Of a DNA stretch of 13,525 nt, positions 2,671 through 9,334 are shown piece by piece; positions within the stretch are counted from its first letter, which is position 1, and every line of letters starts with the position of its first letter. The translations under genes and the position numbers were made by a program. The stretch lies in the IMG/VR virus record IMGVR_UViG_2937142334_000003; one strand, given 5' to 3'. This DNA comes from a virus. Lineage: Duplodnaviria > Heunggongvirae > Uroviricota > Caudoviricetes. The notes below the pieces were generated by a model. The model ran no database searches and was not told where the DNA came from. It saw only the letters and a list, made by a program, of their open reading frames with translations.

Positions 2671-4035
2671 CTAAACTTCATATGAAATATCAGCAAATGT
2701 CTTGTCGGTCCTTTTTTCAACAAAGACTGGGAATCGCAAACTAATATCATTATTGTTTTGATTATGCGTTTCTTCAAAATAGCTAATATCAACTATTTTG
2801 CCAATAATTTCATCTGGATTATTCCAATAGAGGTCTCTATCAACCTCGGTAAAGCCAGTTCCAACCTTAATCTCATATCCTTTGTAATCAATGATAATTC
2901 CACCAAGGGTTCCTTTGAGCTTGCCTGTTCCCTCAAAGACATCCTTTACTAGGACATCAGCATCAAAGAATTCCTTAATTTTAAGTAACCCACTTGTTCG
3001 CTTGGTTACATAATATTCATTATTAAGATTGAGCATAAGTCCTTCCCAACCATTTGGTTCAACGAATTCATGTTGCAGTTTCTTAATTATTGAAATATCA
3101 GAACCTACATATAAATCTTTAACAAGATGAATATGATCAATTGATTGTGGTTCATTGTAATCAAAGTCACTAAAAGCCATCGTTAAGAACCTTTTACGAT
3201 CGTCAAATGTATTTTCAGATTTACCATCCTCAAATTCCTTAGTGGGCAACGCGTCAAAGACATTATATTGAATATTACTCTTATCGGCAGTCTCACTACG
3301 TAATATACGTGAGGTGGCACGGAATAAATCTTTTGTTTCCATATTCTCATCATTAGATAACAATAGCTCTCCGTCTAATACATAGTCTTCAGCACCATGA
3401 TTTCCAAGCAAATCAGCAAGTTTTAACGCTTGTTCTGTTTGTGTCTCTAGTCCATTAATAGGTAATCCCTTACGCGTATAGAATTGCCCCTTGCCATTCT
3501 TAACAATGAATACAGATCTATGACCGTCTAATTTTTGAGTTAAGGTAAATTCGTTGCCTGGAACCTTTTCTGTATACTTATGATACGGATGTGCTAACTG
3601 AACATTAAATTCACGGATAAATCCCTTGCCTAGCGCTTTATTAATAGTTTTAGCCGTGATACCGATCTTTAATTCTTTACCAAAAATTTGATAGATAAAC
3701 TGCTTAGTGTCATCATCAAATAATGAAGCAAAGTCTTGAATCAAATATACAGTGGATAGGGTTCCAGTATTATGTTCCGTTACATAATTCATCAAACCAT
3801 CGAGAGTATAGTCACCAGTATAATCCGTGGCCACAACACTTGATCTTGGGGTTTCATTCAACATTTTTACTGATAATCCTGTACGAATAAAGTCGTCATA
3901 GACAAACTTTAATAATTTTTTGAATTCTTCATTATCCGCATTCTTCTTTAAGATAGTAATTTTGTTGTTATTAGAGCTCTCCGCACTAATTTCATCAAAA
4001 ATTGCTTTTAAGTCATTAATGATTGTTTCTATCAT
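2671..4035 (-). CDS. lig: ATP-dependent DNA ligase
   Basis: Motif I QKLDGHR (KxDG), III LDGEL, IIIa YNVFD, IV EGLMLN, V LLKIK; OB-domain VGTGF and SLRFPVF. Confidence 0.95.
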   Translation of the reverse strand: MIETIINDLKAIFDEISAESSNNNKITILKKNADNEEFKKLLKFVYDDFIRTGLSVKMLNETPRSSVVATDYTGDYTLDGLMNYVTEHNTGTLSTVYLIQDFASLFDDDTKQFIYQIFGKELKIGITAKTINKALGKGFIREFNVQLAHPYHKYTEKVPGNEFTLTQKLDGHRSVFIVKNGKGQFYTRKGLPINGLETQTEQALKLADLLGNHGAEDYVLDGELLLSNDENMETKDLFRATSRILRSETADKSNIQYNVFDALPTKEFEDGKSENTFDDRKRFLTMAFSDFDYNEPQSIDHIHLVKDLYVGSDISIIKKLQHEFVEPNGWEGLMLNLNNEYYVTKRTSGLLKIKEFFDADVLVKDVFEGTGKLKGTLGGIIIDYKGYEIKVGTGFTEVDRDLYWNNPDEIIGKIVDISYFEETHNQNNNDISLRFPVFVEKRTDKTFADISYEV

Positions 4036-4056: not shown

Positions 4057-4485
4057 TTATTCAAATTCGTCCGCCAATTCTTCGATAAAGCCCTCTTCGT
4101 CATTATCTTCTAGTTCTTCGTCTAGGCGAACTACTGTAATATTTTCTCCCCTGAGAGTATCTAGGCCTTCTTCGTTTAATTCTTCTATAGACGGCCAATC
4201 ATAGATTTCAATTGGAGAATCGCCATCTTCAAGATAATTAAGTTCCAAGATCCAGCAGATGCTACGTTCGACCTTACATAGCATCACATTAGCTGTTTCA
4301 GTCTTAGTTATCTTGCGCAATAGAGCGTTCATCTTGGCGTAGCAATTACAGTAAGCTTTATAGCCCTCCAATGATTTTGTTTTAAGTAAAGCTGTACGCA
4401 AATCATATAACTGTTGTACAACTGCAATTAATTCTTCATTTGCATTAAACCATTCGTTAGTAATAGTAACCTGGAAAGTCTTCAT
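4057..4485 (-). CDS. Orphan 142-aa protein with a highly acidic C-terminus (start MKTFQV...)
   Basis: ATG at 4485 has SD AGAGG 9 nt upstream; the track's 4512 ATG has no SD. The last 57 residues contain 24 D/E and only 2 basic residues. Confidence 0.75.
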   Translation of the reverse strand: MKTFQVTITNEWFNANEELIAVVQQLYDLRTALLKTKSLEGYKAYCNCYAKMNALLRKITKTETANVMLCKVERSICWILELNYLEDGDSPIEIYDWPSIEELNEEGLDTLRGENITVVRLDEELEDNDEEGFIEELADEFE

Positions 4486-4624: not shown

Positions 4625-5818
4625 TTAATTAGCCTTGTTAACATGTTCGAAACTGTCGATCCATAAGTCCTTGTCGGTCTTACTCTTCACCCATTTACCA
4701 TCTTGCATAATGGTCTTCGGTCGAGCTGAAGTATCACCAACTTTGATGAGATCTCCTTTTACGATACTACTTGAGTTATAAAGTCTTTTAGAGACAAACG
4801 CTTTGACTTCTTTCCCATGTTTAATTGAATACAGTCCCACAATAACTTTATTGCTTCTTACTCCTAGACTGGTAACAAAAGCATAATTAGATGGAATATT
4901 ACTATTAGTAGTTAGGCATCTACCTAGTAAGTCATATTCGTTTTGTAGCGTAGTAATTAATGGGAAGTTATCATCGTCTAACGACTTTTCATATTCTAAA
5001 CATTCGTGATATTTTTGGCTTTTGCCAACGAATCTTTTATTTTTAGGCTTGTAAGTTTTATGAAACTTTTCATAAACAGATTTTAACTTCTTCGGCGAAC
5101 CAAAATCAGAGAAGAAGTTCAGCAATATTAAGTTTAACAAGTCGCGTTGTGTAACTGCAAACGTCTGCTTGTATCCAATGGTTACTGTTTTCGACTTGAC
5201 TTTCACTAACTTATCCAATTGTTTCAATTCATCTTCGTTGAACGAATTGTAAAGCTCTTTTGTATCATATGTTCCAGGCTTTAAGTCTCCGTCAATACTT
5301 TTAATACTTACTTGTGAATTATCATAGATATCCATTAATAAATCCGTAAAAGTTTTATTTTGCTTATCGCGCAATAGGTATAATTGATCTCCCACATCGC
5401 TTGATACGCCTTTAACGGAAGTCGTTCCTTCGTAAATCGTTTTCGAGTTCTTCTCTAGGTAATATCCACTTTTTGACTTACCAAACTTAAATGGTTTTAA
5501 TTGAATATTATGTTCTTTAGCAAAACTAATTACGCGATTAAGTTTATCTTGCTTACCTTCCCAAATCTGGAATGCTGCCGTACACCATTCTAGTGGGTAA
5601 TAATAACGTAACCAAGTTGAGATATAACCTATATAGGAATATGCCATGGAGTGATTAATTGAGAAACCATAATTGGCTGCGTCCATGAAAACTTGAATGA
5701 AATCATCGGCTATTTTTTCGGCATGTTCTTGTGTATCTTGATAAACGTTTATCATTGTTTTAACGAATGCCCTTTTGATTTTAGGAACTTCTTCATCCAT
5801 AACTGATTTAATTTTGTG
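4625..5818 (-). CDS. dnaE: DNA polymerase III alpha subunit, exon 2 (397 aa: fingers end, HhH, OB-like domain)
   Basis: AANYGFSINHSMAY...WLRYYYPLEW corresponds to the DnaE YxFNKSHxxAY...xLKxxYP motif. The frame is open from 5818 (CAC AAA ATT AAA TCA GTT ATG), immediately after the intron's terminal G; no SD precedes the ATG at 5800. Confidence 0.92.
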   Translation of the reverse strand, partial: HKIKSVMDEEVPKIKRAFVKTMINVYQDTQEHAEKIADDFIQVFMDAANYGFSINHSMAYSYIGYISTWLRYYYPLEWCTAAFQIWEGKQDKLNRVISFAKEHNIQLKPFKFGKSKSGYYLEKNSKTIYEGTTSVKGVSSDVGDQLYLLRDKQNKTFTDLLMDIYDNSQVSIKSIDGDLKPGTYDTKELYNSFNEDELKQLDKLVKVKSKTVTIGYKQTFAVTQRDLLNLILLNFFSDFGSPKKLKSVYEKFHKTYKPKNKRFVGKSQKYHECLEYEKSLDDDNFPLITTLQNEYDLLGRCLTTNSNIPSNYAFVTSLGVRSNKVIVGLYSIKHGKEVKAFVSKRLYNSSSIVKGDLIKVGDTSARPKTIMQDGKWVKSKTDKDLWIDSFEHVNKAN

Positions 5819-6104
5819 CGATAGTTATTAACCATAGGCTTTTTATCCTATGCTCTGGAGGTTTCCCCCATTTTCATCGGACGGTCAATTCCGCCCCAGT
5901 CTAGCATACATTCTCACCCTCGTTTAACGTTAGGCTTCTAGTTGGCAAAACTAGCAAGACGTCTACTATATAGACGAGTGGAGGACTCTCGTGGATGGGT
6001 TATATTCTCATATATGAGTTTCACCATCTATGCGTTACAATGCCATATACTATTAAATATACAGTTATCTCGGAATTAGCGTAATTGAGTTGACTATTGT
6101 CTAT

Positions 6105-7043
6105 TTATGCATTTAATAATTCAACGAATTTATCATGTTTTCTGGGAAGATAAAAATTAGCATCTTCGTACAATATCTTAAATAATTGCTTTGCTTGCTT
6201 CTTACCATATGAGATTTGACATGCTCCTTCCTTTTGCACAATGGATGTTTGCAGTCCTGTGAAGTCAATAATAGACATACACATTTTCTCATTCGTAGAA
6301 AAGCCGACAGAGTAGTAGCTGTGTCGAAATTCCCTTCTGAAACTAACATGCCCCTCAGCATCAAAAAAGCCTCTTAAGAAATGTGCTTTTAGCTCATTTG
6401 AAAGTTGATCTGGGAATTTTTCAAACCCCGTCTTTCTTGGAATTACTCCATAATCTATTAGGCTTTTAACCATATGCACGCTCGTAAGCGATACATACGA
6501 TGCCTTCTTTAATTTCCCTTGGGGCGATCTCGCCATGTAGTCATAAATATCGTAATTGGCTCCAATATCTTTTAGGAACTCCTCTATAAGCAGTCTATCG
6601 TCATACTGCACCTTCAATTTTAGAGAATATTGACCGTTATATATAGATACATTGCCATCAGCCATGATCCAGCCTAGCCAATAGGCTTTTCTTTGGTTAT
6701 CGATTAGATCAAAGTAATCTTCTTTTTGTATTTTAGAAGTTGGTCCCTTGTGTCTCGCTATCCCCATTTTATGAACATGATAATTCACAACTCCCTCTTT
6801 TACGTTGAGTTGCTCAGCAATTTCTCGCTCATATTTACCACTCAGATACAATTTTCTAATCTTTGATTGGAACCTTTCAACCTCTTGAGGTGTACGTTTA
6901 GTTTTCCTCGCCAATCCTAACTCTTTAATATATCTACTTACTGACGATGAACTATATGGCGTAATATCAGCTATTTTAGTACAGCTTAAACCACTCTTAT
7001 ATAATTCAACTATAGTATCAATATCATTCTGCGTATATTTCAT
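6105..7043 (-). CDS. Intron-encoded double-motif LAGLIDADG homing endonuclease with two N-terminal HTH repeats
   Basis: AYWLGWIMADG and HFLRGFFDAEG motifs with acidic catalytic residues present. N-terminal repeats IVELYKSGLSCTKIA... and IRKLYLSGKYEREIAEQL.... SD GAGGUG. Confidence 0.9.
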   Translation of the reverse strand: MKYTQNDIDTIVELYKSGLSCTKIADITPYSSSSVSRYIKELGLARKTKRTPQEVERFQSKIRKLYLSGKYEREIAEQLNVKEGVVNYHVHKMGIARHKGPTSKIQKEDYFDLIDNQRKAYWLGWIMADGNVSIYNGQYSLKLKVQYDDRLLIEEFLKDIGANYDIYDYMARSPQGKLKKASYVSLTSVHMVKSLIDYGVIPRKTGFEKFPDQLSNELKAHFLRGFFDAEGHVSFRREFRHSYYSVGFSTNEKMCMSIIDFTGLQTSIVQKEGACQISYGKKQAKQLFKILYEDANFYLPRKHDKFVELLNA

Positions 7044-7044
7044 T

Positions 7045-7079
7045 ATTATTGTCTCACCTCATTACTATGAGACAATAAT
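7045..7079 (-). promoter_or_regulatory. Perfect 12-bp hairpin over the endonuclease ribosome-binding region
   Basis: AUUAUUGUCUCA (7079-7068), 11-nt loop, UGAGACAAUAAU (7056-7045). It covers the 3' end of the SD and the spacer up to 1 nt before the AUG at 7043. Confidence 0.75.
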
Positions 7080-7153
7080 CAACTCAATTTTAGCCTTCTC
7101 CGATTTAGCCCTCTTTCACATAATGTGTTTCCACATTAACAGGCAACAAATTT

Positions 7154-9286
7154 ACCTATGCCTCTGCGAATTACATCCGCCCTTCCTGCGCTATACCCAC
7201 AAAAATCAACTAAGAAATTCAAAATCTGCTCTTGATAAACAAGATTTCCAAGGGTTGGTGCTAAGAACTTGTTTAGTGCTGAATGACCATTATCTTTAAA
7301 TCGTCCATGAGTAACCGCATCAACATAACTTGAACCTGCTGGGCGTTGAGCAGCATTAACCAAGCTTAACAAGTCCATATACTTAACACCTTTACCAGCT
7401 TCATTAGAACGAATATTCCGAATAGTTTCTGGAGATAACATATCACTCAGTAATTTACCAGCACGATCACCTTCCATTTGGAATACACCAATGTTGTTTT
7501 CTCTCATTGAATTCCATACGGCTTCGTCTTCAAAATCAATAAAATCACTATCTGGTGTGGGGAATGGAATCCCTGCTAATTCAGCGGTACGTGAGATTAG
7601 CCCTATATTATCTAGTCCTAACACGTCATACTTAATATTCTTTAAATATTCGATTTCTCCCATGTCTATCTGGGTTACTGGATAATCCCAGCCAGAAATA
7701 GTCTGTATTCCAAGCGTATCGTCAATGGTATTTGTATCAATAATTATACCTGCGGCATGGCGCCCAAACGAATCGATTACACCAACTACCTTTTTAGCGT
7801 CATCAATCAATTGTTGATGTTCTTCATACACTTCGGTTGGGACAACACCATCATCACCAATCTGATTGCGAATCGATTGAATATATGCTGGTTTACCAGC
7901 ATAACGATCCATACCATCCGCGACTGCTTTAATGGCAGCTTTTAGTCCATAGGTGTTAGCGGTCATAATTGACGCGGCGTGCCATTTAGGATTAGTTAGA
8001 ATCCATTGTTGCACCCACTTTTGGTCCTTGCTAAATGCGTCTACATCAATATCGGGAAGGCTAACACGTTCTGGGTTCATAAATCGTTCAAAATTCAATC
8101 CCAATTTTAGTGAATCCATCTCTGTTTGACCACATAGATAGGCAATCAAAGATCCACCAACACTACCACGTCCAGGGCCAAAATGAATACCATGCTCTTT
8201 AGCCGCATTGATAATATCTTGGTGTGATAACATGTAATCAATCGCACCATTATGCTTATAGACACTATATTCATGATTAACACGATTAATATACGCTTGG
8301 CGTTCATCTGTAGGGAGCTTATCTATACCTCGTTTTAGTAGTCCGTTTTTAATTCTTTTTTGAAATTCTTGTTCTGGATTATCATATAATTGAGGATACT
8401 TAGGATTTCTGTCTAATTCGAAATTCTCAACGGAATTAGCAATATCAACAGTGGCGTCCAATGCCTTTTGGATGCTCTCTTGTGTTAATACTCCCTGTTT
8501 GTTGAATTCATCAACCATCTCAGAACGAGTCTTACACCACAACTCGAATTGGTCATCATTGTCATAACCATTTCGCTTGCCCTTCTTAATAATCTTGCGC
8601 AAACGATCATGGTCCTGATCCAAAGCATGAATGTCGTTAGAGGCAATAAGTTGTAGATTATACTGATTAGCATAATCTTGTAAAACACTGTTTAATTCTG
8701 CTTGTTCCACGTTGTCATGAGGTTGGACCTCAAGATAGACATTATCACGATTATTTCGAGCTAAGTCTATCCATTGTTGTAACACATTATTACGATTTCT
8801 TTTCTCTTCATCGCTCACGTCAGAAGAAACTAGGTTTTGAGCAATTGGTCCAGCAAGACAAGCAGTTGTTATAATAATATTTCCGTTTGAGACAACTCGT
8901 TGAAGCTCTTCAAAAGTGATTCTTCCGTGGTAATAAAAGTGTCCATCTTCACGATTAAATGACTTTGAAGACAGTCGATTAATCTCCTTAACGCCATCAT
9001 AATTTTTGGCAATCAAAATAGTATGATATCCACGATTTTTATCTTCTAAATCCATCGTAGTATAGCCTTCCATGCCATGAATGTACTTTAACCCTGTTGA
9101 TTCAATGTCTCGTTTCCTTTGAACCCATCCGCTGATATTTCCGTGATTGGTAATACATACCGCTGGTAAATTATATTTCTTTGCATATTTGATATAATCC
9201 TTAGTACTCGTCACAATTTCAAAATACCCACCAGCATTCGAAAAATAATCGTGTTGATGTAATGATATCCAATAATTGTAGCTCAT
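7154..9286 (-). CDS. dnaE: DNA polymerase III alpha subunit, exon 1 (711 aa: PHP, palm, thumb, part of fingers)
   Basis: HQH, TNHG, GPGRGS, FERFMNPER..PDIDVD, HAAG, KYDVLGL, GVFQME, VYQEQ, RRGIG. The unspliced frame runs 5 codons into the intron and stops (TAA 7138-7136). Confidence 0.95.
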
Positions 9287-9334
9287 TTAATTACCCCTTA
9301 ACTTATGCCGCAATCTTATTATTCGTGTGTTCTT

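Follow-up and report, generated by a model that had tools for sequence, protein, structure and literature searches.

A group I intron in the dnaE gene of a Limosilactobacillus reuteri-type phage-plasmid encodes a predicted HTH-HTH-LAGLIDADG homing endonuclease

Results

An interrupted dnaE gene

The window analysed here is a 13,525-nt stretch of viral DNA (IMG/VR record IMGVR_UViG_2937142334_000003, Caudoviricetes), which encodes a primase, an exonuclease, a ligase, a Holliday-junction resolvase and a LysM endolysin. Near its centre, a 312-codon open reading frame (ORF) lies between two further ORFs on the same strand (Table 1). The interrupted gene is a dnaE-type gene for the alpha subunit of DNA polymerase III (Pol III), and the flanking ORFs are its two parts. 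Excision of positions 5819-7153, with 7154 joined to 5818, produces a single dnaE frame of 3327 nt. In the nearest genome (G001, 2.09 Mb), the syntenic region is 90-96% identical to the window and dnaE is uninterrupted, the DNA that is absent being exactly window bases 5819-7153. The uninterrupted G001 product and the spliced window product share 94% amino acid identity. A second intron-less allele is found on the 128.8-kb L. reuteri plasmid NZ_CP102426.1. The exon junction first proposed from the sequence (..GGT / CAC..) was borne out, as it restores a dnaE gene of the same length as both intron-less alleles.

Table 1 Features of the interrupted dnaE locus, in window coordinates.
Feature	Position	Strand	Description	Evidence
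dnaE exon 1	7154-9286	minus	711 codons; PHP, Pol III alpha and finger domains	Pfam
P1	7139-7159	minus	exon AUAGGU and intron AA with internal guide UUGCCUGU	cmscan alignment
Group I intron	5819-7153	minus	1335 nt; IA-like with P7.1	missing from intron-less alleles; covariation
P2 hairpin	7122-7137	minus	GAAA loop	
P3 5' strand	7107-7113	minus	GAGGGCU; pairs with 5981-5987 (AGUCCUC)	MFE fold and covariation
P4 5' strand	7098-7103	minus	UCGGAG; pairs with 6070-6075 (UUCCGA)	
P5a 5' strand	7070-7089	minus	20-bp extension of P5	
Local hairpin	7045-7079	minus	13 bp; -14.8 kcal/mol	RNAfold
Homing endonuclease gene	6105-7043	minus	312 aa	open frame without stops; Pfam; PHROG; family alignment; AlphaFold2 model
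HTH1	6921-7031	minus	in endonuclease gene	
HTH2	6768-6890	minus	in endonuclease gene	
LAGLIDADG half 1	6453-6695	minus	D129 codon at 6657-6659	
LAGLIDADG half 2	6111-6398	minus	E230 codon at 6354-6356	
P5a 3' strand	6083-6102	minus	begins 2 nt after the endonuclease stop codon	
P6 hairpin	6043-6064	minus		agrees with P6 in the RF00028 alignment of the ORF-less relative L048
P7	5899-6033	minus	GCAUA 6029-6033 with UAUGC 5904-5908	alignment, covariation
P9, P9.1 and P9.2 hairpins	5833-5896	minus	GAAA loop in P9.1	
dnaE exon 2	4625-5818	minus	397 codons and stop; starts CAC AAA (HKIKS..)	

Exon 1 ends in ..RRGIG with the codon GGT, so that its last base is U, and the intron ends in G (..CTATCG; ..CUAUCG in the RNA). 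Across the junction, the spliced frame reads ..RRGIG/HKIKS.., compared with ..RRAVG/HKIKS.. in G001, and the predicted ligated-exon sequence is ..GGCATAGGT-CACAAAATT.. The insertion point falls within the finger-domain motif of dnaE-type polymerases, between RRxxG and the following K or H. The frame of exon 1 continues for five codons into the intron (KFVAC) and ends with TAA at the 3' edge of P1 (window 7136-7153), where ribosomes on unspliced RNA would stall at the internal guide sequence.

It is conceivable that splicing does not occur at all, and that dnaE, split by a free-standing endonuclease gene, yields two polypeptides that are translated separately and then assemble. Exon 2 does contain an in-frame ATG (MDEEV..) seven codons past the proposed junction, and ORF lists give two separate dnaE ORFs. 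However, the junction removes exactly the DNA that is inserted relative to uninterrupted alleles, about 400 nt of a conserved, covarying group I core flank the ORF, and an ORF-less version of this core in the gyrA gene of Bacillus phage AR9 is annotated as a joined CDS. We therefore regard the split gene as extremely unlikely.

Group I core and placement of the ORF

On the covariation of its predicted helices, positions 5819-7153 are assigned as a group I intron with a P1-P9 core; introns of this class are self-splicing, with guanosine as cofactor. In P1, the splice-site U (the last exon base) pairs with a G of the guide UUGCCUGU. Compensatory changes in P3 were found in four relatives, namely the intron of Alicyclobacillus phage MMB025 and those of contigs L009, L063 and L079, with pairings such as GCGGGCA/UGUCCGC and CCCAGC/GCUGGG compared with GAGGGCU/AGUCCUC in the window. 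P4 retains its pairing in relatives as UCGGUG/(U/C)ACCGA, an A-U pair of the window intron being a U-A pair there. The span assigned to P7 also encloses P7.1, the 3' strand of P3 and an enlarged P8 (5915-5980). In the 3' halves of nine related introns, 96% of the positions in P7, P7.1, P8, P9 and P9.2 are paired, and 20 of the 29 pairs from P7 to P9.2 show compensatory double changes. As a control, sliding the registers by 1-3 columns reduced pairing to 27-46%. A different assignment, with P3 as GUCUUGC/GCUAGAC and a GGGCGG hairpin as P8, was ruled out by the MMB025, L006 and L009 introns, the MFE fold and the alignment of L048.

Rfam gave no match at gathering threshold anywhere in the window. 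A permissive search with the group I model RF00028 (gathering score 50) returned only a 13.5-bit partial match to P1-P2, and permissive searches returned nothing on the 3' part of the intron alone or on the AR9 locus. That the window falls short of the gathering score is due to the 1-kb ORF, which interrupts the model. The ORF-less relative L048 (2763-2994), at 33 bits (E 5.5e-7), is likewise below this score, and its RF00028 alignment assigns P3, J3/4, P4, P5 and P6 to the same segments as mapped in the window. RF00028 is weak on phage IA-type introns, and the missed gathering score thus lowers certainty only slightly.

Since the 5' strand of P4 lies upstream of the ORF and its 3' strand downstream, the ORF occupies the P5 loop. 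The original prediction, that the ORF is looped out of P5 by a 20-bp stem, could be re-derived exactly: P5a comprises 19 Watson-Crick pairs and one G.U pair, with a duplex energy of -26.1 kcal/mol. The endonuclease gene lies in P5 in MMB025, L006, L009, L063 and L079 as well, and ORF-less relatives have a short P5 hairpin in its place. In MMB025, the 3' end of the ORF runs through the 3' strands of P5 and P4; placement of that ORF in P6 was considered and ruled out, as the true P4 3' strand (CACCGA) lies inside the ORF end.

The P5 region also contains signals that bear on expression of the ORF. Its putative ribosome-binding site, GAGGUGA, lies partly inside the local 13-bp hairpin, which uses the same bases as the P5a 5' strand, so that the two pairings compete. 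GAGG is 13 nt from the endonuclease ATG, a long spacing, and translation may thus be weak. A consensus scan of the coding strand from the 5' splice site to the start of the ORF found no sigma-70-like promoter site, so the template for endonuclease translation is probably either the dnaE pre-mRNA or the excised intron. Given the bases shared by the hairpin and P5a, and a stop codon only 2 nt from P5a, translation of the ORF and folding of the ribozyme could disturb one another, a conflict known from T4 introns.

The protein: HTH-HTH followed by a two-motif LAGLIDADG nuclease

The product of the ORF has two N-terminal HTH domains and, after them, a LAGLIDADG nuclease part with two motifs, in which the catalytic residues are intact. 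The first motif, YWLGWIMADGNV (residues 121-132, core LGWIMADG), carries the acidic residue D129, and the second, HFLRGFFDAEGHV (residues 221-233, core RGFFDAEG), carries E230. In a 31-sequence family alignment, G124, D129, G130, K204, R224, G225, G231 and a C-terminal RK pair are invariant; position 230 is D in at least 90% of the family and E in the protein studied here. Pfam LAGLIDADG_3 (PF14528) matches at 32.5 bits, above its curated cut-off of 22.5, LAGLIDADG_1 matches the first nuclease half more weakly, and HTH_7 matches at 28.2 bits (cut-off 23.8). Several Pfam HTH families cover residues 2-39 and 64-115, and the two N-terminal segments are mutually homologous (31% identity over 36 aa, E 2e-4). 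PHROG family phrog_4645 ("endonuclease") matches at 4.1e-43, with residues 16-308 aligned to profile positions 3-302 of 308. Profile searches against PDB sequences retrieved I-AniI and I-HjeMI with the nuclease part, and the 105-residue tandem-HTH protein 2lvs and the Sleeping Beauty PAI domain with the N-terminal part, while NCBIfam gave a sub-threshold match to the tandem HTH of the CRISPR-repeat-binding protein Cbp1.

The AlphaFold2 model built on the same alignment has a mean pLDDT of 91.9 over the 312 aa. It contains two three-helix bundles at residues 5-41 and 52-92, corresponding to HTH1 and HTH2, and a nuclease part with a duplicated alpha-beta-beta-alpha-beta-beta-alpha fold. Pfam, the family alignment and this model thus agree on the arrangement read initially from the sequence, two LAGLIDADG motifs preceded by two tandem HTH-like repeats. 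With Foldseek, the top PDB matches are the bI3 maturase, I-AniI, I-Tsp061I, I-HjeMI, I-SceI and the I-OnuI group, with E values of 3.5e-10 to 1e-6 for bI3, I-AniI, I-Tsp061I, I-SceI and I-OnuI. These five, from organellar and archaeal group I introns, share with the phage protein a pseudo-dimeric two-motif fold with one acidic residue per motif, and are likewise encoded in an intron loop. They differ in lacking the N-terminal HTH pair, in their low identity to the phage protein (12-16%) and in residing in organellar or rRNA introns rather than in a phage protein-coding gene.

Both the profile and the fold searches thus lead to homing endonucleases and not to the regulator WhiA, the non-nuclease identity that had been considered for this protein. 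WhiA also combines a LAGLIDADG fold with an HTH DNA-binding domain, but it is a chromosomal regulator with the reverse domain order (C-terminal HTH) that has lost the catalytic residues. A WhiA identity was rejected since Pfam LAGLIDADG_WhiA (PF14527) reaches only 14 bits (cut-off 23.2), the HTHs here are N-terminal and the acidic residues are kept.

The protein might instead act mainly or additionally as a maturase that binds the intron RNA and assists its folding, like yeast bI3 or I-AniI, with DNA cleavage secondary or lost. In the structural comparison, the bI3 maturase and the bifunctional I-AniI rank highest, and the long peripheral insertions in P5a and P8 might need help in folding. 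Yet these matches (TM about 0.57, 14-16% identity) reflect the shared monomeric LAGLIDADG fold, and family-wide conservation of D129, D/E230 and K204 would not be required by selection for RNA binding alone. ORF-less relatives of the intron, which presumably splice unaided, and the peak of exon divergence described below, which indicates mobility at the DNA level, also argue against a maturase. We consider this role unlikely, and a DNA endonuclease remains the preferred assignment.

Relatives in phage introns

The starting expectation had been that a LAGLIDADG enzyme would be atypical of phage introns. This view of its rarity did not hold, given PHROG 4645, I-MsaII and at least 503 IMG/VR viral contigs with relatives of the endonuclease. 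In a database of 5.8 billion protein clusters, 69 relatives have equal length and domain make-up; the best-matching homologues are 63% and 57% identical, and the close relatives are all free-standing proteins of about 310 aa. A tblastn search of 50,697 phage records found relatives in 137, of which 91 are Staphylococcus phages, where they are annotated as I-MsaII or "intron-encoded endonuclease" and lie inside a RecA-like gene. The Kayvirus gene has been described as an intron-encoded endonuclease with a LAGLIDADG-like domain (PMC5618024, PMC6022877, PMC7698491). Proteins of the I-MsaII type (Kayviruses MSA6 and fRuSau02, and ORF152 of JA1/B1) also have an N-terminal HTH and a double LAGLIDADG_3 domain in about 310-322 aa, and reside in a predicted group I intron of a phage DNA-metabolism gene. 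In tblastn, I-MsaII aligns with residues 3-303 of the window endonuclease at only about 25% identity, and it differs in its host gene (a RecA-like recombinase rather than dnaE) and in its carrier, a lytic myovirus. We found no biochemical study of the PHROG 4645/I-MsaII-type family in the literature.

Phage introns mostly carry GIY-YIG, HNH, PD-(D/E)xK or EDxHD enzymes according to a review (PMC3984707), a statement that holds for the enzymes that have been characterised. Many LAGLIDADG examples are already present in sequence databases, and one from Bastillevirinae is included in a 2025 survey (PMC11878797). Among the characterised systems, the T4 td intron with I-TevI (and those of T-even and SPO1 type) is likewise of group IA, interrupts a phage gene of DNA metabolism and has its endonuclease gene looped out of a peripheral helix (PMC3984707). 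I-TevI resembles the window protein in its modular build, a nuclease domain with an HTH-containing DNA-binding domain, and its homing proceeds with co-conversion of exon flanks, as proposed for the window intron. The T4/SPO1-type systems differ from the window intron in having a GIY-YIG or HNH nuclease, an ORF in P6a or P9 rather than P5, and a single, C-terminal HTH.

The 3'-half core of the intron lies directly downstream of the endonuclease gene in about 16 of 80 sampled IMG/VR loci, as judged by a covariance model. The homologous intron of MMB025 (PV686781) interrupts the identical dnaE codon (..RKAIG/KK.., compared with ..RRGIG/HK.. here) and carries a gene for another 312-aa HTH-HTH-LAGLIDADG protein (28% amino acid identity), but has a short P8 and no counterpart of the window intron's extra P9 hairpin. 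The MMB025 record (L002, 672-5034) annotates two "DNA polymerase" genes, an "endonuclease" and a 31-aa hypothetical protein separately; they represent a single dnaE with a group I intron between exon 1, which ends at L002 position 2878, and exon 2, which starts at 4096. The same intron family includes the gyrA introns of Bacillus phages AR9/PBS1, of which the two in AR9 score 98-108 bits against a model of the 3' core. These gyrA introns differ in having no endonuclease gene, another host gene and a divergent 5' half.

Placement relative to the ribozyme varies among relatives. At L036 (3501-4700), the gene for an endonuclease homologue stops about 50 nt upstream of P3, the core there being complete and of the ORF-less type. 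This gene is thus in or before P1/P2 and not in P5, so that the family has more than one site with respect to the ribozyme.

Exon divergence and origin of the intron

Differences between the exons of the window and G001 are concentrated at the junction. In the 30 bp upstream of it, 16 of 30 positions are mismatched; over the 90 bp downstream, there are 8, 13 and 13 mismatches per 30 bp, and beyond about 300 bp from the junction the values fall to 0-2 per 30 bp. Such a peak is the pattern expected of co-conversion from a more divergent donor during homing, although in this sequence comparison recombination of the ordinary kind with a divergent phage, not driven by the endonuclease, could also have produced it. 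The G001 genome contains no homologue of the endonuclease. With 16 mismatches in the 30 bases ahead of the junction, the G001 allele may fail to serve as a substrate.

Presence or absence of the intron is polymorphic among elements whose exons are 88-95% identical, and the intron is thus not fixed. This bears on the possibility that the protein is only a remnant, in decay or domesticated, that has no nuclease activity and, if it is maintained at all, serves like WhiA as a DNA-binding regulator through its HTHs. Homing endonuclease genes often degenerate once fixed, the spacing of the ribosome-binding site is poor, and the HTH pair resembles CRISPR-repeat-binding Cbp proteins and transposase PAI domains. 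In contrast, the frame is of full length with every family-invariant residue present, an identical protein occurs on two contigs (its cluster has 16 member sequences), and the WhiA profile stays below its cut-off. Together with the polymorphism, these data make a remnant quite improbable, and an intact homing endonuclease is preferred.

As to its origin, the endonuclease had been proposed to be an intein-like or free-standing gene that invaded a pre-existing intron. The intein-like part of this proposal is not supported: Pfam finds no Hint/intein domain in the ORF, and the close relatives are free-standing. An intein-borne endonuclease was likewise rejected because, besides the missing Hint domain, the ORF is delimited by a start and a stop codon of its own, and the frame of exon 1 ends five codons into the intron. 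Recent invasion of this intron is unlikely because at least five further, divergent phage contigs carry homologous introns with the endonuclease gene in P5. As ORF-less relatives exist, an old invasion of an existing intron remains plausible.

The last 88 nt of the intron (window 5821-5908, from the 3' strand of P7 to P9.2) match the ORF-less gyrA intron of the Bacillus jumbo phages AR9, PBS1, Internexus and Goe21 at 90% identity, and the remainder of the intron shows no detectable DNA similarity to the AR9/PBS1-type gyrA intron. This confined match suggests mosaic exchange between introns of phages with different hosts.

Discussion

We interpret the locus, with a probability of roughly 0.85, as a mobile group I intron in dnaE whose P5-borne HTH-HTH-LAGLIDADG homing endonuclease targets intron-less dnaE. 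In the proposed mechanism, the intron RNA would fold into its P1-P9 core and remove itself, as its structure and the exact junction suggest, and a 1108-aa polymerase could then be made. LAGLIDADG enzymes are marked by site-specific, Mg2+-dependent cleavage that leaves 4-nt 3' overhangs. The most likely target of the monomeric enzyme encoded here is intron-less dnaE, cut at the exon junction or close to it, and repair from an intron-bearing copy would then copy in the intron together with flanking exon sequence. The two homeodomain-like HTHs most likely lengthen or anchor recognition beside the roughly 20-bp LAGLIDADG footprint. Translation of the endonuclease would depend on access to the ribosome-binding site, which is expected to vary with which of the two mutually exclusive pairings forms.

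More tentatively, the tandem-HTH LAGLIDADG proteins may form a distinct subclass in which the HTHs read extra DNA or repress their own expression, and in the window intron the choice between P5a and the hairpin may couple translation to folding; we consider this extension doubtful at present.

The element is an additional member of a widespread, already annotated phage family and not a surprising exception. The textbook impression that phage introns carry only GIY-YIG, HNH, PD-(D/E)xK and EDxHD enzymes needs correcting, as a family of LAGLIDADG enzymes with a constant HTH-HTH front end is common among the genomes of phages and phage-plasmids. Annotation of the window element and of MMB025 should join the two dnaE ORFs of each into one spliced gene, and for enzymology the family offers compact, predicted long-site nucleases with an accessory DNA-binding module.

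As for the carrier, NZ_CP102426.1 encodes ParM, RepA and RepC-type proteins and toxin-antitoxin pairs along with a terminase; partition and replication genes beside a terminase are consistent with a phage-plasmid. The fairest description of the window element is therefore a Limosilactobacillus reuteri-type phage-plasmid, which appears better than a plain phage, the host being taken from its relatives. NZ_CP102426.1 (L086, L087) has an extra 540-bp hypothetical gene between dnaE and a nuclease gene, which is absent from the window at 9287-9334.

The family repeatedly targets conserved dnaE motifs. Besides the finger-domain site of the window intron, a relative (L006) lies in dnaE 22 codons upstream of it, and those of L040, L055, L015 and L068 interrupt phage dnaE at about residue 412, beside the conserved PDIDVD motif; Lysinibacillus phage LC76P1 (37133-40605) is also listed among the relatives in dnaE near this motif. 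Other phage dnaE genes, in Bacillus phage vB_BcoS-136 and Thomasclavelia phages, contain HNH endonucleases. From these insertions, dnaE looks like a hotspot for homing elements.

Finally, in the contig L048 (IMGVR_UViG_3300031867_000003), two group I introns appear to abut within 2763-3303. The intron of the window's family ends near position 3028, and a second RF00028 match (80.6 bits) starts at 3026, an arrangement that may represent a micro-exon or tandem introns. A third intron lies 3 kb downstream, at 6414-6765.
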